Shown here one piece after another: positions 18,676-29,433 of a stretch of DNA of 64,000 nucleotides (its first letter is position 1; every line of letters starts with the position of its first letter). The DNA is taken from NCBI RefSeq assembly GCF_024502345.1, contig NZ_JALDNN010000001.1. One strand, written 5' to 3'. The notes under the pieces were generated by a model. That model saw only the letters and a list, made by a program, of their open reading frames with translations, had not been told where the DNA came from and did not search any database. Origin of the DNA: Escherichia coli. Lineage in GTDB: Bacteria > Pseudomonadota > Gammaproteobacteria > Enterobacterales > Enterobacteriaceae. The translations under genes and the position numbers were made by a program.

Positions 18676-21414
18676 TTACTCAGCTTTAGCAAACTGCTGG
18701 GTGAAGTAAGCCAATGAATTAGCTTCTTTTACGGCATCATGCGGAATGAGTAAGTATTTCCAAGGTTTGCCACCGTGCTGTGCAAGGTATTCACTGGCAT
18801 GACTACACCATTTCACACCACTGCGGGCTTTTTCGGTGACTTCCTCATTCCAACTGCCGTCTTGGTTTTGATGTTGAGTACTTTTAGTTTCAATCATCAA
18901 TACATAGTCGGCGGTTTCAGCAACGAAATCCGGCACGTATTCAGGATGCTCGCTACCGCGTTTGTAGTACATCTTGAATTGGCCTTTGGCAGGCTTAAAC
19001 CACTTCTCGCAGTCGCGTTCTAAAATCACCGCAAAACGGCGCTCAGTGTCTGAATCAAACTTTTGCAATGGGTATAGACAACGGCTAAAGCCGCCAAAGA
19101 GCATTTGTTTGATGCGACTGACATCGCGTACTGTATCACGGTAGCTTTGCACCGGCTGGTCTTGCGCTATGGTGTAAGCGCAGTCACGTAAGGTACTAAA
19201 GCCACTGCGTACATCGACGACGTACTCGGTTGCTTCTTCAAAGAAGTGGTTGTTCAGTTGCGCATGAATTAACTTCGCAATCGCATCACTCTGGTTTTGC
19301 AGAATGTTCTCAACCACATCGTCGTCGTTTTCAGCGGCCAGTGTATTGACAGCTTGAGTGGCTAGGTCAAACAAAAGTTCAGCTTGCTCGTCGTAAGGAA
19401 TATCGTCGTAATCGAACAGCTTCTTCAAAATATAGTTTTGTTTCACCGGCTCGTAGTTGCCCGAATCGCCTTCGCCACGAATGGTTTGGTGATTGTCTTG
19501 CAGGCTTTGTTGAATCAGAGTTCGGTCGATAGGTTTTAAACCTTTAATGGCAGCAATGTCCAAATCGAACGGGTGATAGCCGGTACGTACTTCACCTGAT
19601 GGTGAAACAATAATACGCGGAATATCTATGGTGTTATCCACCGTGAGCTGGGTGACTTGCTCAACAATCGCCGCAATATCCACCGATTCTTCAGTAAATA
19701 GCTCCCGTTGCTCTTGGGTTAACTGAGCTTTTACTTGTTCGGTGATCTGTGCTTTTACCTCAGTCGTTAACAATGCTTTGCTGGTCGGCGCATCGGTAGG
19801 GCGTGTTTGATATTGCTTGATCACGTCCAATGCAGCGCGGGCAACGGTTTGTTGGTTAGGCGTGGTATAAGTGGCTTTAGGTTCTTGTACCTCACGGTTA
19901 CCGTCTGCACCGGTTGCGGTTACACCTGAACCAGTCAGTTGCTGCTCTAGGTTCGATTTAACCTGCACACTTTGTTTGGTTACATCGTCTTCTGGGCGAT
20001 CTAATACGCGTGTTTTCAGGCGCAGTGGGTTATTCGGGTCGTTAGCCTCATCAACAATTTCTTGGAATTTGTCGTGCGCAACAATGCTCAGCGTATCGAC
20101 GGCTTCAACACCTGTACGTTTGCCATAAGGTAAACGCAAACCACGGCCAATTGACTGTTCAATTAGGGTTCTGGCGTTGGCTGCACGTAGTGGCACAATG
20201 GTGTACAGGTTAGTAACGTCCCAACCTTCTTTCAGCATGTTAACGTGAATGACGATCTCGGTTGGCTCATCGACATGCTCAACATTGAGCAGTGCTTGAA
20301 TAGTTTCTTCTTCTTTTTTACTGCTATCCACTTGAATGACTTTGCCACGGTAGCGGCCGTCAAACACTGTTTCAAGTTTGGTTAAAAGCTCTGCTGCATG
20401 CGTGGTATCACGGGCAATCACCAACATAAAAGGCTTAACTAACTTAGCATCGTTTTCATGTGCATAAGTGATTAAATCCACCTTGGTTTGCTCATGTAAA
20501 CGAATACCGTCCATTAACTTAATGGTTTCTAGTTCGTCTTTATCATATTGGCTGGCATCAAAGTTACGCTGAGTAACAACGGCAGGCTCTTTAACAAAAC
20601 CATCATCCATGGCACAGGCCAATGGGTAATCAATCACCACATTTTTAAAGTGCACAGGGCCACGACTTGATTCGGTAAATGGTGTGGCCGTTAGCTCTAA
20701 TGCGAATAGTGGATTAAGCTCATTGAGCGCACGCATACCGGCATCGGCACGATAGCGATGCGATTCGTCCATCAGCAGCACTAAGTCAGGTAAGTTCGAT
20801 AGATACTCAAAGTAGCTTTCGCCTAGGGTTTCCGCTAAACGCTTAATACGCGGGGCTTTGCCTCCACGTACTTCGGTGTTAATTTTCGCGATGTTAAACA
20901 CATTGATCCGAACCGAACCAAATAGATCGCCCATGACTTGTGCGCCGCGGCTCTCATAGTTATCACCGGTGATCACTTCTGGCGGTGCTAGCACAAAATC
21001 GGTAATGCCTTTAAACACGTACTTCGGTGAGGCGGGCGAGAAATCGCTGATCAGCTTTTCATAAATAGTCAGGTTAGGTGCCAACACAAAATAATTGCGA
21101 ATGCCATGTACCTGATACAAATAGGTAATAAACGCCCCCATCAAACGGGTTTTACCTACACCTGTTGCCAAGGCAAAACACAGTGAAGGAAAGTCACGTT
21201 CAAAATCGCTGAGCTTAGGAAACTGCGCTTTTAAGGTTTCTAATAGCTCCGGCACATCGCGTTTTGGGTTCAGTAGTTTGTGCTCAGAAGCACTAATCGC
21301 CACTGCCAACGCACGCAGCGAATCTTGCTGCGGCTGGCGTAAGCTTAAACGGCCAATAATATTATTAATGGCACGTAATTGGTCGGGTTTTAAGCTTGAT
21401 AAATCCATGGTCAT
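18676..21414 (-). CDS. Type III restriction enzyme Res subunit (SF2 helicase + PD-ExK endonuclease)
   Basis: Helicase motifs I ATGVGKT, II DESH, VI QSIGRGLR; C-terminal PD…ETK (YVPDFVAETADYVLMIETK); directly downstream of the Mod gene. Confidence 0.85.
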   Translation of the reverse strand: MTMDLSSLKPDQLRAINNIIGRLSLRQPQQDSLRALAVAISASEHKLLNPKRDVPELLETLKAQFPKLSDFERDFPSLCFALATGVGKTRLMGAFITYLYQVHGIRNYFVLAPNLTIYEKLISDFSPASPKYVFKGITDFVLAPPEVITGDNYESRGAQVMGDLFGSVRINVFNIAKINTEVRGGKAPRIKRLAETLGESYFEYLSNLPDLVLLMDESHRYRADAGMRALNELNPLFALELTATPFTESSRGPVHFKNVVIDYPLACAMDDGFVKEPAVVTQRNFDASQYDKDELETIKLMDGIRLHEQTKVDLITYAHENDAKLVKPFMLVIARDTTHAAELLTKLETVFDGRYRGKVIQVDSSKKEEETIQALLNVEHVDEPTEIVIHVNMLKEGWDVTNLYTIVPLRAANARTLIEQSIGRGLRLPYGKRTGVEAVDTLSIVAHDKFQEIVDEANDPNNPLRLKTRVLDRPEDDVTKQSVQVKSNLEQQLTGSGVTATGADGNREVQEPKATYTTPNQQTVARAALDVIKQYQTRPTDAPTSKALLTTEVKAQITEQVKAQLTQEQRELFTEESVDIAAIVEQVTQLTVDNTIDIPRIIVSPSGEVRTGYHPFDLDIAAIKGLKPIDRTLIQQSLQDNHQTIRGEGDSGNYEPVKQNYILKKLFDYDDIPYDEQAELLFDLATQAVNTLAAENDDDVVENILQNQSDAIAKLIHAQLNNHFFEEATEYVVDVRSGFSTLRDCAYTIAQDQPVQSYRDTVRDVSRIKQMLFGGFSRCLYPLQKFDSDTERRFAVILERDCEKWFKPAKGQFKMYYKRGSEHPEYVPDFVAETADYVLMIETKSTQHQNQDGSWNEEVTEKARSGVKWCSHASEYLAQHGGKPWKYLLIPHDAVKEANSLAYFTQQFAKAE

Positions 21415-21435: not shown

Positions 21436-23142
21436 TTAATCTTGCGCTGCATCGTCATCGGCAGACGCATCGTCAGTTAGGTTTGCCACGTTTAACGAAT
21501 AATCGTCCTGACCAAATTGGCACTTGTCTAAAATGGCTTTTGGCAGTTTTTTCAAGGTTAAATTGGTAAAACGACCTGGCTCGCAGCGAAATGCACCACA
21601 CATAACCAGTAAAGTTCGGTCACTGCCAACTTCTTCTGACAGCGCTTCTAATTTATCTACCGATAAGCTTTGTGTGGTGACATAAATATGATCCGTCTCG
21701 GTTGAATAACCGTGATCCCACCAATTCACTTCCGATGGCGCATAGGTAAAACCTTCCAGCTTACAAACGGCTTCGGCGAGCATTTCTGGGTTGTACTCTT
21801 TATTGATCACTTCCAAGCCAAACTTATCTTTCACAATTAAGGTCGGGGCAAGTTTGTAATAGCGGAAGCCACCGCCACCTTGCCAGTTTACAGACTTAGA
21901 AATACCACCTTGATCTTCGCCATCAATCACTTTTTGCAAGCGCGGGATAATATGGGTATGACAATGATCACCTAGCTCGACCGAGATCCAACGTCTTTTC
22001 ATCTTGTGAGCTACAGCAGCAGTAGTTCCCGAACCACCGAATGAATCAAAGACTAAATCGCCTTCTCGCGTACACATTTCGAAAATCCGCTTCAAAAGCG
22101 CTTCGGGTTTTTTTCCATTTTTGAAACTAACGCCGCCTTCATTTGCTATTCCATTCCAACTAATGTCAGTCCAAACATCAGTTATTAGTTCAGCAGGTTG
22201 CATCTCACCGTCAATTTCCAAAAGCCTATTGGAGTAAAAGACCATTTGCCTACCATTTGCGATATAAAAGCCTTCGACATCCTCATTTGGATGTACATAA
22301 ACCTTATCCCTATCTTTCTTTGACTTCTCGATAGTTTCTTTTCTCTTTATTTTAGCACCACCACCAATTGCAACGGATTGAAATACACGTTCTGCATTAT
22401 CAATTGCGAATTGTGCTAATTCATCATCAAATGTATCAGGCAGTTTTTTCTTGGCTTCTTTTGTATCTTTATAGCCATTGGCCTTTGCAAACGCATCGGC
22501 AATACCGCACCACGTCCAACTTTTATAATGGTCATCTGGGTTTAATAGATATTTGTTATATCCCGTATCATATCCTTTAGGTATATAGATTTTGTTAAGC
22601 GGTTTCTGGGTGCGATCTTTTGCGTATACAAGCAAAAAGTTTACTGTGGAGAAAACTGTGGCCCCTGTTGCCTTAAAGCCTGAAGGGTCATTTGTGGTCA
22701 TCGATATGGTATTTAACTGATTTGCACGACCAAAAATCTCGTCCATCAAAACTTTTAAATAAGCCATTTCGCAGTCATCTAAGTGAACGAATATTACTCC
22801 ATCATCACTTAGTAGATTACGAATTATTTCTAACCTATCCCTCATTAAGCCCAGCCAAATGGAATGCTCCAGACCATCATCATAGTGCTCAAAAGCACTT
22901 CCGGTATTGAATGGTGGGTCTATGTAAACACACTTCACTTTGCCTGCATATTCTTGCTCTAGCGCCTTCAATGCCAATAAGTTATCGCCAAAAATCAGTT
23001 TATTATCAAAAATATCGTTTTCGGTCACTTTTTGGCTGGCGTGATAAGACTTGCTCGGGTCTTCTAACAAAATGCGCGGCTCTAACTTTTTGCGCTCGTT
23101 TTTGCCTATCCAGGTCAGTTCTAATTTGGTTTTGCTCATCAT
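21436..23142 (-). CDS. Type III R-M Mod subunit (N6-adenine/N4-cytosine class DNA methyltransferase)
   Basis: Motif IV DPPFN and SAM motif FDSFGGSGTT; mod-res gene order with a 21-bp gap. Confidence 0.85.
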   Translation of the reverse strand: MMSKTKLELTWIGKNERKKLEPRILLEDPSKSYHASQKVTENDIFDNKLIFGDNLLALKALEQEYAGKVKCVYIDPPFNTGSAFEHYDDGLEHSIWLGLMRDRLEIIRNLLSDDGVIFVHLDDCEMAYLKVLMDEIFGRANQLNTISMTTNDPSGFKATGATVFSTVNFLLVYAKDRTQKPLNKIYIPKGYDTGYNKYLLNPDDHYKSWTWCGIADAFAKANGYKDTKEAKKKLPDTFDDELAQFAIDNAERVFQSVAIGGGAKIKRKETIEKSKKDRDKVYVHPNEDVEGFYIANGRQMVFYSNRLLEIDGEMQPAELITDVWTDISWNGIANEGGVSFKNGKKPEALLKRIFEMCTREGDLVFDSFGGSGTTAAVAHKMKRRWISVELGDHCHTHIIPRLQKVIDGEDQGGISKSVNWQGGGGFRYYKLAPTLIVKDKFGLEVINKEYNPEMLAEAVCKLEGFTYAPSEVNWWDHGYSTETDHIYVTTQSLSVDKLEALSEEVGSDRTLLVMCGAFRCEPGRFTNLTLKKLPKAILDKCQFGQDDYSLNVANLTDDASADDDAAQD

Positions 23143-23196
23143 TTCTGTGCTCTTATCTTGTGTTCGTTACTTAGCGTTATTATTCTACAGCAATCG

Positions 23197-25062
23197 CTAC
23201 GCAGGTTGTGCTTGGCGATTACTCGCTTGGGTGTTTTGCCCTTGTCGGCGTTGCGCTTGCTCGGCTAAGTAACTGAATAAATTCTGGTTGTGTGGGTCGT
23301 TCGCTTGAAGGCGTTCTTGTTTTGCTACAACTGCCGGGCTTTCTGCCAAGTTTAAATGGCTAATCCACACCGTTTGCATTAAACGTGCGGTATCGCCCAA
23401 GCGTTTGAAGTATGCGTGCGGCGCACTGCCTAATACTAATGCCGTAAAACTATCAAAAAATTGCTGACGAAGTTCATCAAAAGCGTGGCTGATTAATCTT
23501 TTAAATGCCGCTTGCTCGGTAATCTCAGGAGCCGTAATAGCGCCTTCAAACTGCGCCATTAATAGCGTGGTTATGCAGTAAGTAAAATGTCGATATACCA
23601 GTTTTTCTGGGCTTGGACTACTGCGCTCTGCGTTTGTACATAAGACTTGAATAGCCAGATAGCAGTTCACCGCGTTAATGGCGACGGCCCCCTGTAAATC
23701 TGTACTAAAAACGGCTTGGTACTCGGCACTTTCTTGGTTAGTGAATTTGCTTGGCTCTACTTTTAGCTGATAAGGCACGCGTACATCACCGTGCATACAG
23801 GCCAATGCTTTGGCCAAGGTGTCGATAGTAATGCTGCGAATACCCGCTGCTGCGCTTTGTTGTGGGCGGTAGAGATATTCAACACCAAACATTTTCATCT
23901 CTTGGCGCAAGCGTTCTTGGGTATCATCCAGCGCGGCAAAGTTGGCTAAATCGACCGGGTTTTGCAGGTTACGCGCTTTGGTTACTTGTTTGTGAAATGC
24001 ATCGTTACCCGTGTTGATAATGGTTACCATCACTTGAGCTTGGCTGATGTCTGCATTTGGGTTTTCACGCATAAACTGTGCAGCACTAGCAATGGTTTGT
24101 GCACCGTTAACGACGGACAGGCCATCGACTGCAACATGCTTGCTACCTGTGTGGCCTCTAATATTCCCTTTTGGTTTTACTGCATTGCCAACCAGAGTAA
24201 TGCCATTGTTAAGATAAATAAAATTTTCCGGCTCATGTAAAAGGGTGTCTTTAATCGCCCTATTTACCCCACGTCTGCCAGCACCAATAAAATAGCGAAT
24301 ATTTTTCTCGTAAAGTTTACGGTCATGAGTAGTGTGCAAGGCAATTAAATCGGTTAGCTTGGCGATACCAAATACGACTTTTCGTGGTTGTTCTTGCACT
24401 CGGAACTTATATACAGCGACACGCTCGTTTACCGTATCAACCGCATGTTCACTGCGAAGAGCCTGCTCAACATCGGTGGCGGTGTATTCTTGATATTCAG
24501 GTGCGATTTGCTCTTCACCTTCATCAATCAGCTCTTGGATCGCTGGTTGTAGGTAGTTTTGTGCTTGTATGGTAATGCCATTACCTGTGTATGCGACAAG
24601 CAGTTGAATTCTTTCGCACTCGTCTAATGCGGCTTCAATATTTGCTTGAAGGTTTTGAACATTTTGATTAAAGCGGTGAAATTGCTTGTTTAAAAGTAAC
24701 TTTACACCCTCAATAAAAGCCTGTGCTTCGCCCAATTGGAATTGCGCATCTTCCTTCATTTTTGACTGTACTAAGTACAGAGTCTGATCAGCTTCGTGAT
24801 AATAAATTGCATCAATACCATGGTCTTCATAGTCGTCCACCACAGCTTTTGCTGCGGTCACTACGTCTAAATCGAATTTTTGCTGTAGTACGAATGCGCT
24901 AAAAGCCCTGGAAATTTGCTTTTTAGGTTTATCTTCTCGCCCACCTTGCCCAAGCAATGGCGGTAAATGCGGCACAAAACGCTGCTGTAGCAGTTCTTTT
25001 AATAGGGTAAGAAATTGTGGTTGTAATGCTGCCAAGTGAGTTGTCCTTATTTTTATTGCCAA
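23197..25062 (-). CDS. large abortive-infection-like protein, tentatively AIPR family (621 aa)
   Basis: Size and context (between an Abi_2 gene and an RM system) and a remembered VVNGAQT-like block; family assignment from memory only. Start overlaps the upstream stop by 10 nt. Confidence 0.4.
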
Positions 25063-25994
25063 ATTGGCCGCGCTTGCCAGTCGGCTGGAAAGCCCATGCG
25101 GTCAATGTCTATTTGGTGATGATTTATCAATTGGATGAGTCGTTGCTTCCAGTGATGTTCACCACTGATCACATCCATGAGGTAGCCCAACATCACCAAG
25201 GTGTTATAAATTTTTCGTAAACGCCGGTCGCTATCGGGCAGGTTTTGCAAGCTTTGAATCAGTGCCGGTTCACCATGGCGTGGCAGTACCGTGGTTTTAA
25301 TAAAATCACGGTTCCATAGCCTAGAATGATGGGCACTTAAATTGCGCACTAGCGACAAATGCTCACAGAATGAGGTAAGAGTTTTTTCATCTAGGCCGTA
25401 GCTTTTGCTTATTACCTGGCGGTCGGCACGCAGCTTGATATTGCTGTACCAACAGGAAAGTTGCCCCATGGTTAACAGCTCAACACAGGCCCAAATAGGG
25501 GGTAGTGGCTCTTGATATTTTTGCGTAAGGTGCTTGATGAACTCTTCACGACTGCACTTTACCTCACCCGTGAGTTTGCCAAGGCTACTGGCGTATTCTA
25601 ATAAATCACCAAAGAGCTCTGGTTTTAAATGAGGGTGCGCGGTTTGGTATTTTTGGCTCAACTGATACGCAATTTGTGTGCGTAATGACACCTCAAAACG
25701 CTCGATGGCATCTAGCACTAACAAACGTAGTTCACGGTCGAAAACATATAGGCTTAGGACTTGGTCAAACTGAGTACCTGTGATAAACGTATGACTGGCA
25801 TGATCTTGCTCATAGGGCAAACAATAAGCCGCAAAACGATAGTAGTTCAGCTGTGCTAAGTAAAACTCAGCTTTCGGGACATCACTGATCACTAGGCCAC
25901 GTTGTTGCAACAAGCGTACTTGATCGCTAAAGCTTGTAGGGGGCTTGGTAAAAGCGACTTTAGGGACTGGTTTGCGGCTCATTTGACCTCCCAT
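25053..25994 (-). CDS. Abi_2-family (AbiD/AbiF-like) abortive infection protein
   Basis: 313 aa with N-terminal …[17 protein letters not shown]… signature, which I recall as typical of Abi_2 proteins. Confidence 0.55.
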
Positions 25995-26139
25995 GCAACA
26001 GAAGATCGAATTTTGCGGGCCCCAGAAACGAGTAACCCCTCACAGGGCGCTGATCTGACGGGTAGCGGGAGGGGTGTTGTTGCAGTGATCATAGCCCCAA
26101 ACTGAAAAAAGTCAATGCTGGCGTTGAAATTGATTGTCA

Positions 26140-29034
26140 TCATTGAACCGTCCACCCAATGGTAAATAGGGTCTCTTGGCTGGTTTTTTTATTCAGTTTG
26201 CCTTCTAAGCTTTCAATCAGCTGTTCGCGCTTTTCGTCCACTTCATCTTGTTTATCAAACAGTTCACGGCGGCTTTTATTGCGCTGACTTTCTAACTGGC
26301 GCTGCTGTTTTTGCAGGGCAAGTTTCTCTTCCAGGGTTGGAGCTATTTTGGCTTCGCGGCGTACTTGCTTGATTTGCTTATCAAGCTCTTTTATAGATTG
26401 TTCAAGCCCTTCTTTTAAATCGTCTGCCCAAGAATCTAACTTGTTTACCTCTTGCTCGAAGAAGCTGAGATTACGATCGTTAACTTGCTTTTCGATGCCT
26501 AGTCTCGACTGCTGTAACGCATGCTGCAGCGCATATTGATAGCCAGGATATAAGGCGGCAAGTTCTTGCTCACTTACTTCACTTTGCACACAGGCACTAA
26601 GCTGCATCAGCTTTTGCACGACTTCACTTGGTAGCGGATGACCATGTTCATCTTGCGCGGCGAACAATAAATGGTCTTCGCTACGCTCCAATGATTCGAC
26701 ACTAAATTTTTGTAGGCTTAGTACACCTGACAAACCCACTAAGGGTTCTAGCATACTGATTTTTGTTTGGTGGTTGCTGTAATCAAAAATTACGCTGGCA
26801 ATGGGTAATTCACGTTGAAGCGCGTTGCTGATCACCCATTCACCCAGCGGGTGGGTGATACGATACACATGGGCATTGGCTAGTTTACCGGTTTCAATAC
26901 TGCCGCTTTGCTGTCCTCGGCGTACAAGTTGGTAGCTACCTGTAGGAGCCTGATTGATACTTTGATTAAGCGTAAAACTATGGTTGCTTGGGTCAATGTC
27001 TGCGATAGCTGCAAGTTCATGCGTACTGAGTTGCCAGAACCAACGGCCTACTTTATCGAGGCGTTGCTGCGCGGCATCTAGCTGAATTTTGAGTAAGTCG
27101 TGAATATCTTCATCGAAATTTTCCAGCAGCAGTTGCTGGGTCTCGCGCATTTTTTGGTTGATGTCGGCTTCTAGCTCTTTTTGCAATTGATCAAAAGCTG
27201 CTTCTATTTCCGCCGGTTGCCGACAAGTCTCGTATATATTTTGGATGCGTTTTTCAAAATCAATACCAGATTCAATGCTGCCTAGCACATCGTCCGATGC
27301 ACCAAACACGCCATCGAACAGATGGAATTTTTCAGTCAGTAACTCTAAAACACGCTGATCGGCTTTGTTGGCTTCGTTGAGGAAGTTGATCACCACAACA
27401 TCAAATTGCTGCCCATAGCGGTGACAACGGCCAATACGTTGCTCTACTCGTTGTGGGTTCCATGGTAAGTCATAGTTAATAAGTAACGAACAGAACTGTA
27501 AGTTAACCCCTTCTGCAGCCGCTTCGGTTGCGATCATAACTTCGGCATGATGGCGGAAGTAATCAATTAGGGCAGTACGGCGGTCAATTTGCGGTGAACC
27601 ACTCACCTTATCACTACCTTGGTTTTCAGCTAACCACTGCTGATAAACTTTGGTTGCTTCTGGATGGTTATTGCTGCCACTAAAGGTGACTAATTTATCA
27701 GCAAAGCCATTCGCCTCGAGGAAACGAGCTAGGTATTCTTGCGTGCGCTTCGATTCGGTAAAAATAATGACTTTACGTGGCGCCCCCATTTCCTCCATTT
27801 TGGCAAACCCTTGATTAAGCGCCGTTAGCAAGGCTTGGGTTTTACTGTCGGTGGTAATGGATTTAGCCTGCTCGATATAATGCTCAAGCTCGGCTATTTC
27901 AGCATTGAGTAACTCAAAGTCAATATCACTCTCAGGGGTATTGCTTTGTGTTTCTTCTACATACTCGCTGTACTCTTCTCCTAAATCATCACTCTCAACA
28001 AGCTCACTGATAATATCGAGGTCCGATTTAGCCTGTACTTTCAAGTCAACCAATCGGCGCTTTATAGTTTCGAGTGTGTTGAGCACTGCGTGCGAACTAG
28101 ATGCTAATAGCTTTCTCAGTATAAGGCCGGTTAAATGACGTTGGCTCTTGGGTAGTGCATAGCTCTCGTCCTTTTCCAATAAGGCACTAATACTTTCGTA
28201 AAGTGCCATCTCAGCATTAGAGGGTGTAAACGGTACGGTGAGTGTTTGACGTTGGGTATAGCGGACGTATTCGAGTACATCTTTGCGCAAGGTACGCTGA
28301 ATAAACCCGGTAAGTCGTTTCTTTAAATGCCCTAGCGCACTTTCGTTATTGACAAAGTGTTGTTTGAAGCTTCGCTCATCGCCGAAGATTTGATCGTCGA
28401 TAATGGTTGAAAGTCCATACAATTCCATGAGCGAGTTTTGTAAGGGTGTTGCAGTAAGTAATAGCTTTTTACTGCCATCTAATGCGCGGCGTAGCGTTTG
28501 ACCCATTTTATTGCTGCTACGATGTGCATTACGTAGCTTGTGCGCTTCGTCGATGACGACAATATCCCATGGCTCTAGCATTAGCTGCGTTTCCATTCTC
28601 GCAGCATAGTGATAGGACATAATAGAAACGCAGTGATTAGCTAGCGGGTTAGTTTGACCATTGTTAACACTAATGCGCCACGTTTTTGCATCAAGCACTT
28701 GCGTTGGTAAATTAAACTTATCGCCCAATTCCTGCGCCCACTGGCGTCGCAATGACGCCGGGCAGATGATCAATATGCGGCGTTTACGCTCTGCCCAATA
28801 CTGTGACAGTACTAAGCCTGCTTCAATAGTTTTCCCTAAGCCCACTTCATCAGCGAGTACAACACCTTTGCTTAACGGGTTGTTGAGCGCAAAAAGTGCC
28901 GCATGAATTTGGTGCGGATTGAGATCAACACTGGCATCAAAAAGAGATTGAGACAATTTATCAACGCCATTTTCAGCGTGGCGAATGGTTAATTCCTGCG
29001 CAAAGTATTTTGCTTGATAATCAGTTATTACCAT
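26140..29034 (-). CDS. SNF2-family helicase (about 965 aa) with C-terminal coiled-coil-rich region
   Basis: Motifs I LADEVGLGKT, II VIDEAHKLRN, III LLLTATPLQN, VI QRIGRCHRYGQ. Start set at MVITDYQ (29034) so that overlap with the upstream HTH gene is 14 nt rather than 95. Confidence 0.85.
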   Translation of the reverse strand: MVITDYQAKYFAQELTIRHAENGVDKLSQSLFDASVDLNPHQIHAALFALNNPLSKGVVLADEVGLGKTIEAGLVLSQYWAERKRRILIICPASLRRQWAQELGDKFNLPTQVLDAKTWRISVNNGQTNPLANHCVSIMSYHYAARMETQLMLEPWDIVVIDEAHKLRNAHRSSNKMGQTLRRALDGSKKLLLTATPLQNSLMELYGLSTIIDDQIFGDERSFKQHFVNNESALGHLKKRLTGFIQRTLRKDVLEYVRYTQRQTLTVPFTPSNAEMALYESISALLEKDESYALPKSQRHLTGLILRKLLASSSHAVLNTLETIKRRLVDLKVQAKSDLDIISELVESDDLGEEYSEYVEETQSNTPESDIDFELLNAEIAELEHYIEQAKSITTDSKTQALLTALNQGFAKMEEMGAPRKVIIFTESKRTQEYLARFLEANGFADKLVTFSGSNNHPEATKVYQQWLAENQGSDKVSGSPQIDRRTALIDYFRHHAEVMIATEAAAEGVNLQFCSLLINYDLPWNPQRVEQRIGRCHRYGQQFDVVVINFLNEANKADQRVLELLTEKFHLFDGVFGASDDVLGSIESGIDFEKRIQNIYETCRQPAEIEAAFDQLQKELEADINQKMRETQQLLLENFDEDIHDLLKIQLDAAQQRLDKVGRWFWQLSTHELAAIADIDPSNHSFTLNQSINQAPTGSYQLVRRGQQSGSIETGKLANAHVYRITHPLGEWVISNALQRELPIASVIFDYSNHQTKISMLEPLVGLSGVLSLQKFSVESLERSEDHLLFAAQDEHGHPLPSEVVQKLMQLSACVQSEVSEQELAALYPGYQYALQHALQQSRLGIEKQVNDRNLSFFEQEVNKLDSWADDLKEGLEQSIKELDKQIKQVRREAKIAPTLEEKLALQKQQRQLESQRNKSRRELFDKQDEVDEKREQLIESLEGKLNKKTSQETLFTIGWTVQ

Positions 29035-29227
29035 CCAACACCCCTTTTCCTTGAGCTGCTTGCGTACTGATCCATTCTTCAAGATCGGATTGTTTAAAGC
29101 GCCAAGCATTGCCAACTTTAAAAGCAGGAATTTTATGTACCGCTGCTAGACGGTAAACAGTTCTCTCATTTACCTTCAAATACTCAGCTACTTCTTTAAT
29201 TGTCAGAACGGTATCAGTCATTTTCAC
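29021..29227 (-). CDS. small helix-turn-helix DNA-binding protein (excisionase/MerR-like HTH)
   Basis: LTIKEVAEYLKVNERTVYRLAAVHKIPAFKVGNAWRFKQSDLEEWI is a typical HTH_17-type pattern; overlaps the SNF2 start. Confidence 0.7.
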   Translation of the reverse strand: MKMTDTVLTIKEVAEYLKVNERTVYRLAAVHKIPAFKVGNAWRFKQSDLEEWISTQAAQGKGVLDGNN

Positions 29228-29433
29228 TCGGCCACTTTGAAAAGTGCGTCAATTATCTAATGCGAGTGTCAAAATAGTACAAATAAGTACATGAATCAAT
29301 CTTATTCGGCACTTGCCGGAGCTCCTTGGCTTTAATCCTCATCAATTTTAGGTACAGTTTTCAGGCTCGGGGATAAAGTATAAAGAATGTCGTACTGCCG
29401 CTGCCAGAGCAATATTCCCCCCTGCTGGTTGTA

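Follow-up and report, generated by a model that had tools for sequence, protein, structure and literature searches.

Canonical Type III restriction-modification (R-M) systems consist of mod and res only, and Cas13 is thought to derive from the AbiF family of HEPN proteins. The published AbiF systems are self-contained toxin/RNA pairs: PDB entry 8VZ6 represents PbAbiF in complex with its non-coding RNA antitoxin (PMC12737573), and the AbiF of C. difficile is controlled by the upstream RNA antitoxin RCd22, which holds the Rfam abiF motif (PMC12373285). HEPN genes of the Abi2/AbiD/AbiF type are known to sit in R-M operons (Anantharaman et al. 2013, PMC3710099), and AIPR proteins in R-M operons are likewise known, this context being the one that defines the family (PMC2292703). 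In the lactococcal abortive-infection (Abi) system AbiU, an AIPR protein (AbiUi) lies beside a modulating HEPN protein (AbiUii; PMC13064643). Here we analyse a locus in which all of these kinds of gene meet, an Abi_2 gene followed by an AIPR gene within a Type III-like restriction operon, on a 64,000-nt stretch of Escherichia coli DNA (contig NZ_JALDNN010000001.1 of assembly GCF_024502345.1). This whole stretch is called the window, and all coordinates refer to it.

The operon lies on the minus strand and reads, in order, a small helix-turn-helix (HTH) gene, SNF2, Abi_2, AIPR, Type III Mod and a Type III Res-like gene. We interpret the Abi_2 gene as part of a mobile AbiF toxin/RNA-antitoxin cassette that is nested in a Type III-like SNF2-AIPR-Mod-Res operon, i.e. 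as one of two separate defence units, and give this reading a probability of about 0.72. The adjacency of Abi_2 and AIPR would then be due to the site of insertion and would not be evidence for a two-protein machine. A first-pass annotation of the window had instead proposed a translationally coupled two-component Abi module riding with a Type III R-M system. The association with a Type III-like R-M unit was recognized correctly; both genes are flanked by SNF2 on one side and Mod/Res on the other. The coupled module itself does not stand.

The proposed coupling had been deduced from an ATG start of the AIPR gene at 25062..25060 and a 10-nt overlap with the end of Abi_2. The bases at this position are TTG and mark merely the most upstream possible start of the maximal open reading frame (ORF; 25062..23197, 621 aa). 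The real start is the TTG at 25035..25033, 17 nt (25052..25036) past the Abi_2 stop codon. All 18 aligned AIPR homologues (53-93% identity, 597-612 aa) begin at this position with MAALQ..., and the RefSeq product, encoded by 23197..25035, has 612 aa. The 17-nt spacer (25036..25052) contains the sequence AAGGA (25048..25044), which we read as the ribosome-binding site of AIPR, 8 nt before the TTG. In one close homologue of the locus (L011; homologous loci carry the prefix L) an identical 17-nt spacer precedes AIPR though the upstream gene is SNF2 and not Abi_2, demonstrating that the close spacing is a property of the AIPR 5' end and not of the Abi_2/AIPR pairing. AIPR-only loci have the same spacer and TTG start directly behind the SNF2 stop codon. 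In loci with Abi_2 the gap between SNF2 and Abi_2 measures 157-217 nt and that between Abi_2 and AIPR 11-17 nt. The last codons of Abi_2, TGG CAA TAA, share the string TGGCAAT with the SNF2 3' ends of AIPR-only loci (window 25050-25062 compared with L003, L011 and L016); judged from the sequences, this may be microhomology at the 3' insertion junction.

We then analysed the co-occurrence of the two genes from both sides. Among AIPR-orthologue loci with informative upstream sequence Abi_2 is present in 7 of 21 (L009, L010, L012-L015 and L025), and it is missing from L011 although the AIPR of that locus is 89% identical. No Abi_2 match was obtained in the 27 loci with distant AIPRs, a count that is weaker since the Abi_2 hidden Markov model (HMM) is clade-specific. 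From the other side, a metagenome scan with an Abi_2 alignment returned 80 loci, 40 of them with at least 1.5 kb of downstream sequence, and AIPR follows Abi_2 in a single one of these 40 (L066). The two Abi_2 genes most similar to that of the window (88% and 84% identity; L005, L006) stand alone among housekeeping or flagellar genes. A relative with 67% identity lies in an HTH-SNF2-Abi_2-methyltransferase-Res arrangement without AIPR, whose Mod and Res are non-orthologous (46-96 bits). Most metagenomic relatives are found inside Type I R-M operons or alone; Abi_2 is located between hsdM and hsdS in L082, L124 and L134, and others adjoin hsdM, hsdS or hsdR. Further neighbours include a Type III Res, Dpd/Druantia-type helicases, PD-Lambda-4, a SIR2 protein and a GmrSD-like protein.

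Within E. coli the pair is found in 24 of 5,426 complete genomes, and it matches NZ_CM149867.1 at 100%; the window corresponds to a chromosomal island adjoining tRNA-Phe. The backbone is carried by 29 complete E. coli genomes, 24 of which have both genes. In five E. coli genomes a 1,178-bp deletion leaves a 206-aa C-terminal remnant of AIPR, with Abi_2 (99.7% identical), Mod and Res intact. As AIPR is lost here while Abi_2 is intact, AIPR is not needed for cells to tolerate Abi_2. Four genomes have the order SNF2-IS1-Abi_2-Mod-Res, with a 67%-identical, frameshift-split Abi_2 allele and without AIPR, and one genome keeps HTH and SNF2 only. We also considered whether a single backbone has one slot that is filled by either Abi_2 or AIPR. 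This holds in part: the Mod and Res of L007/L008 and L070/L071 are non-orthologous and belong to different SNF2-linked systems. The same backbone lacking AIPR is seemingly present in L067 and the E. coli IS1 variant only.

A translationally coupled two-protein Abi module that merely sits beside a Type III R-M system is thus highly improbable. Its attraction is clear: the two genes are neighbours with the same orientation, a mere 17 nt separates them and no terminator is predicted in between, the pair is kept together with the whole cassette in the 24 E. coli genomes as well as in Proteus, Pantoea, Catenovulum, Nitrincola and metagenomic bins, and lactococcal AbiU provides a comparable neighbourhood. 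The co-occurrence data largely refute it, and the missing overlap, the solitary nearest relatives of Abi_2 and the E. coli genomes with an intact Abi_2 beside a deleted AIPR all speak against it, as do the coupling of AIPR to SNF2 wherever Abi_2 is absent and the promoter and RNA partner that Abi_2 has of its own.

The family assignment of the Abi_2 protein made in the first pass was confirmed by Pfam (4.6e-51, model positions 2-184 of 184). The gene encodes 309 aa from the RefSeq start at 25982 (25053..25982); an alternative upstream ATG at 25994 gives a maximal ORF of 313 aa (25994..25053). Besides matching PADLOC AbiD (3e-71), the protein can be aligned over its full length with PbAbiF (PDB 8vz6_A; E 6e-51, residues 8-309 versus 4-300), and a profile of the family finds 8VZ6 with an E value of 7e-67. 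The HEPN signature R-x4-H is present as R213-N-L-S-A-H218, in which R213 and H218 align to the catalytic R210 and H215 of PbAbiF; R213, N214 and H218 are invariant among 26 Abi_2 homologues. By analogy with PbAbiF the protein would be a toxic HEPN RNase that is neutralized by an RNA.

Such an RNA is predicted in the spacer between SNF2 and Abi_2. The spacer contains a sigma-70-like promoter (TTGACT-16 nt-TATGAT, 26115..26088, minus strand), which is the best consensus match (10/12) in 22900..29500, and a TTGnnn...TAnAAT pair is found at the equivalent place before the RNA in many unrelated Abi_2 loci. The promoter is predicted to drive both the RNA and Abi_2 from a putative transcription start. 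The stretch after the -10 box is kept at the nucleotide level before Abi_2 in differing contexts (73 of 80 loci by nhmmer). The RNA was first detected by nhmmer on the upstream regions of homologous loci and was then linked to the Rfam abiF family RF03085 via intermediates. It comprises a 5' AACAACA tail, the helices P1 (ACCCCUC/GAGGGGU) and P2 (CGCU/AGCG), an asymmetric 3' bulge and a U-rich tail. In an alignment of 46 distinct copies, P1 (7 bp) and P2 (3-4 bp) are paired in 94.5% of cells. Double (compensatory) changes occur in 8 of the 11 pairs, a covariation score that was reached by 0 of 500 shuffles, and sliding the pairing partners gives much lower values. RNAalifold yields the same two helices.

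To locate the RNA in the window we used a covariance model (R1) built from 24 divergent members, none of them window-like. The model has a single significant match in the 64 kb, 26083..26021 on the minus strand (32.1 bits, E 2e-6), just downstream of the best promoter match, where the RNA is predicted to act as cis-encoded antitoxin and leader. Applied to the homologous loci, the model detects the RNA immediately before Abi_2 in 82 of the 84 cases for which upstream sequence is available; four AIPR-only loci give no match. The abiF-type RNA, and not AIPR, is the near-universal partner of Abi_2. Homologous copies pass the RF03085 gathering threshold of 37 bits (L105, 48.7 bits; L097 and L101, 45.2 bits; L089, 38.0 bits), and eight further copies score 27-35 bits.

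The cassette therefore resembles the described AbiF/AbiFr systems (PbAbiF, AbiF-RCd22, RF03085) in its full-length homologue with the catalytic Arg and His, in the structured, promoter-proximal RNA that directly precedes the gene and whose U-rich tail resembles the RCd22 terminator, and in related RNA copies that exceed the Rfam threshold. It differs in the longer P2 loop of the window RNA, which the 37-nt Rfam model misses, in having a single copy compared with the two motifs of RCd22, and in its location in a Type III-like restriction operon instead of a prophage lysis module. Two abiF-like copies are found in some Abi_2 loci (L094, 2546-2723; L127, 4139-4343; L109, 1259 and 2568), and the tandem copies of L094 and L127 recall the two motifs of C. 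difficile RCd22. In addition, a conserved CUGGGG right after the U-rich tail pairs with the P1 5' strand in the single-sequence minimum free energy fold (26015-26030/26066-26072, minus strand). This could be an anti-terminator-like alternative pairing, or the motif could be a ribosome-binding site in loci with shorter leaders.

The second unit is the operon in which AIPR has its home. The AIPR assignment of the first pass likewise holds in Pfam (3.7e-38, model positions 1-304 of 308), and the protein matches PADLOC AbiU with 1.4e-37. While an AIPR profile gave no match to PDB sequences, fold comparison, the one informative result, indicates a FokI-like nuclease fold in the N-terminal restriction-endonuclease-like domain; similarity to FokI has likewise been reported for lactococcal AbiU/AbiUi (PMC13064643). 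The GxDA...Q-x-K motif is kept even in remote AIPRs, and a nuclease activity of the protein appears plausible from these features. Two AIPRs (P0046 and P0047, 72-74% identical overall) are near-identical to the window protein in the C-terminal half and strongly diverged from it at residues ~60-300, the nuclease-like and middle region. This mosaic pattern points to recombination or to diversifying selection in the N-terminal part.

An AIPR alignment was used to scan a single genome of each species, which gave 53 loci; their ORFs were searched with the six window proteins and the Abi_2 HMM. In the window, as in those orthologous loci whose flanks are long enough, AIPR lies in an R-M operon: in every such locus (36-99% identity) AIPR is followed by Mod and then Res, and Mod follows AIPR wherever downstream sequence exists, save in the truncated locus L026. 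SNF2 is located upstream of AIPR in 17 orthologue loci, i.e. most of them. The hosts comprise Gamma-, Zeta- and Alphaproteobacteria, Planctomycetes, Verrucomicrobia and Acidobacteria, and two further look-ups returned HTH-SNF2-AIPR-Mod-Res without Abi_2. In the ten insert-free loci SNF2 and AIPR are spaced by -4 to +17 nt. Overlaps of 4 nt are found at the AIPR/Mod and Mod/Res junctions of distant lineages (L028-L034), and also between SNF2 and AIPR in L029. Across loci the four proteins SNF2, AIPR, Mod and Res lose bit score in parallel. No PADLOC or NCBIfam model names the SNF2-AIPR-Mod-Res combination, and we found no named SNF2+AIPR+Type III system in the literature searched, which was not exhaustive.

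AIPR could itself be a passenger, an old insertion at the SNF2/Mod junction that is not a working subunit. The junctions of this operon do accept many passengers, AIPR-less backbones exist (L067 and, in E. coli, the variants with the deletion or IS1), and lactococcal AbiU functions without an R-M system (PMC13064643). We nevertheless regard this as doubtful. The AIPR clade holds one position across at least five phyla, its junctions show the 4-nt overlaps described above, and it has diverged in step with SNF2, Mod and Res. Loci L007/L008 and L070/L071, which have Abi_2 only, represent different systems, and the AIPR-less E. coli variants look degenerate (IS1, frameshift or deletion).

The passengers are of several kinds. 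RhuM (Pfam 3e-111) and an HNH protein sit between SNF2 and AIPR (L019 8970-10001 and L028 4521-6146), and the Mod/Res junction holds Fic in L024 (3668-4792), a YhcG/DUF1016 nuclease in L023 (13416-14555) and a TrlF/Ppl-like ATPase with an unassigned 417-aa protein in L021 (7047-11122). Two Verrucomicrobial loci encode a protein of ~210 aa between SNF2 and AIPR (L030 8596-9228, L028 3860-4495); the two share the C-terminal sequence FDKVDDS(I/V)FNDQN, and the L030 copy has no NCBIfam match.

Taken together, the nested arrangement suggests the following model. The host unit would be the conserved [HTH]-SNF2-AIPR-Mod-Res operon, of which AIPR, with its restriction-endonuclease-like D...QxK domain, is a long-standing and probably integral part, and in the ancestral arrangement SNF2 and AIPR would have been tightly or translationally coupled. 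Judged from the domains, the operon would perform methylation-dependent restriction with extra motor and nuclease subunits: Mod would mark host DNA, and Res, with its SF2 motor and PD-ExK nuclease and aided by the SNF2 motor and AIPR, would attack unmodified DNA. The AbiF cassette would have inserted just past the SNF2 stop codon, bringing the HEPN RNase (Abi_2/AbiF) together with the ~60-nt abiF-type RNA and a sigma-70 promoter of its own. Judged by the PbAbiF/AbiFr and C. difficile AbiF/RCd22 pairs, the RNA would bind and silence the AbiF dimer, and its U-tailed hairpin may also curb read-through. Loss of the RNA induced by a phage would free the RNase and abort the infection.

Alternatively, the six genes might in this lineage form one wired, multi-layer system, in which AbiF serves as a PrrC-like second line that is held or triggered by the R-M and AIPR proteins together with the RNA, and in which the terminator-like RNA gates the expression of AIPR-Mod-Res. 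A PrrC-like role has indeed been proposed for HEPN proteins in R-M operons (PMC3710099), and as in PrrC-EcoprrI a HEPN RNase gene lies here between the genes of R-M subunits. The Abi_2 clade is found overwhelmingly inside R-M or other defence operons, mostly between hsdM and hsdS or beside hsdR. Through the insertion, AIPR-Mod-Res is also separated from SNF2 by a new promoter and a U-tailed hairpin, and toxin-like passengers (RhuM, Fic, HNH, YhcG, TrlF/Ppl-like) occur in the same operon elsewhere. However, PrrC is silenced by contact with R-M proteins, whereas AbiF has its own RNA antitoxin and occurs also without an R-M neighbour. The Abi_2+RNA cassette is found in many unrelated contexts, even alone among housekeeping genes, and so needs no specific protein partner. 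In addition, we found no evidence that Abi_2 co-evolves with AIPR or Res, and the published AbiF systems work as toxin/RNA pairs by themselves (PMC12373285, PMC12737573). We therefore consider a single wired system unlikely.

Several observations weigh against two nested, separate units. As no terminator is predicted between Abi_2 and AIPR, the two genes are very likely co-transcribed here, and some functional cross-talk between them is conceivable. The AbiU locus is a precedent for the adjacency of AIPR and HEPN genes, with a different HEPN family (PMC13064643). On the side of the RNA, RF03085 misses the window copy in scans of 24900..26400 and 25975..26145 at E<=10; by Rfam's own cutoff the window RNA is a divergent relative and not a member. 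Its single-sequence fold differs from the consensus and is no stabler than shuffles (z +0.96), so that the support for the RNA structure is comparative only. As for the host unit, the loci were seeded by AIPR and show that AIPR is always in the operon, not that the operon always has AIPR, and the same or similar backbones exist without it, namely L067 and the E. coli variants in which the gene is missing or deleted.

Compared with lactococcal AbiU, the locus shares the PADLOC AbiU match, the FokI-like fold and the adjoining HEPN gene. AbiUii, however, belongs to another HEPN family than Abi_2 and AbiU lies outside an SNF2-Mod-Res operon, while the HEPN gene of the window is upstream, dispensable and usually absent from the orthologous loci. 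The likeness to Type III R-M systems of the EcoP15I type resides in Mod and Res. The Mod DNA methyltransferase (568 aa, 21436..23142, minus strand) matches PADLOC MTase_III over its full length with 944 bits. The Res-like protein (912 aa, 18676..21414, minus strand; REase_III 634 bits) is an SF2 helicase that carries a PD...E-x-K nuclease motif at its C-terminal end; this motif, of the PD-x13-ExK type (PDF-x13-E(T/P)K), is kept in 24 of 24 aligned orthologues. The two-gene composition of the Type III systems is exceeded by the conserved SNF2 and AIPR and by the small HTH gene. From sequence, the operon encodes two motor proteins and two nuclease-like domains (AIPR and Res). The Mod bit scores vary between 737 and 1297 in L001 (the operon with its surroundings), L009, L012, L013 and L015 despite ~99% identical SNF2 and Res (~2050-2130 bits), a spread that looks like swapping of target-recognition domains, i.e. 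changes of specificity.

The first two genes of the operon resemble parts of other named systems. The HTH gene (66 aa, 29021..29221, minus strand), annotated in RefSeq as mads1/MAD1, overlaps the start of SNF2 by 14 nt, and this overlap is kept in other loci (-8 to -14 nt). Its product matches the NCBIfam model antiphage_MADS1 with 82 bits (cutoff 80) and an excisionase-family HTH with 62.6 bits. The SNF2-family helicase (26140..29034, minus strand) is 964 aa long when read from its RefSeq start, with a maximal ORF that reaches 29115, and scores 693 bits against PADLOC DrmD and 697 bits against NCBIfam DISARM_DrmD_b. The locus does not qualify as MADS: the HTH protein alone passes a MAD model (MAD1), and MAD6, MAD7 and MAD8, which are mandatory for MADS (10.1101/2023.03.30.534895), were not seen among the operon proteins or the RefSeq neighbours (for SNF2 and Mod, among the best 25 PADLOC families listed). 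DISARM was rejected as the DrmD_b score is below the cutoff of 950 bits and the operon has no DrmA, DrmB or DrmC, and MZA as AIPR reaches only 48 bits against MzaE (cutoff 1050 bits) and matches it at residues 246-350 only.

The surroundings of the operon (~15 kb on each side) correspond to a tRNA-Phe island with a tyrosine integrase. The island also carries Phd/Doc and CbtA/YeeU toxin-antitoxin pairs, a fimbrial operon, insertion sequence remnants, and ArdA with other anti-restriction genes. A search of the plasmid collection gave no match, and scans of viral contigs returned one locus for SNF2 and none for Abi_2.

Much of this locus belongs to kinds that are already known, namely AbiF with an abiF RNA, HEPN Abi genes in R-M operons and AIPR in R-M operons. 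The new elements are modest and may be two, the divergent abiF-type RNA missed by Rfam and SNF2-AIPR-Mod-Res as a widely conserved, unnamed operon. The latter could tentatively be taken further, as a distinct four-component restriction-type system present in at least five phyla, with AIPR as an obligate subunit coupled to SNF2, with junctions that are landing pads for toxin cassettes, and, in this E. coli lineage, with an AbiF promoter and terminator-like RNA that re-wire the expression of AIPR-Mod-Res. If such re-wiring were true, a toxin-antitoxin switch would be linked to a restriction system. In any case SNF2-AIPR-Mod-Res offers a defined context for probing the function of AIPR proteins. 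As the proteobacterial variant of the abiF-type RNA escapes Rfam, annotation pipelines will label such Abi_2 genes as 'orphan' toxins. The locus also corrects a tempting inference, since adjacency and an apparent overlap do not make a two-component system. For the building of defence operons our reading implies that a self-sufficient AbiF cassette hops among restriction operons and would have landed here between two genes that are otherwise translationally coupled.

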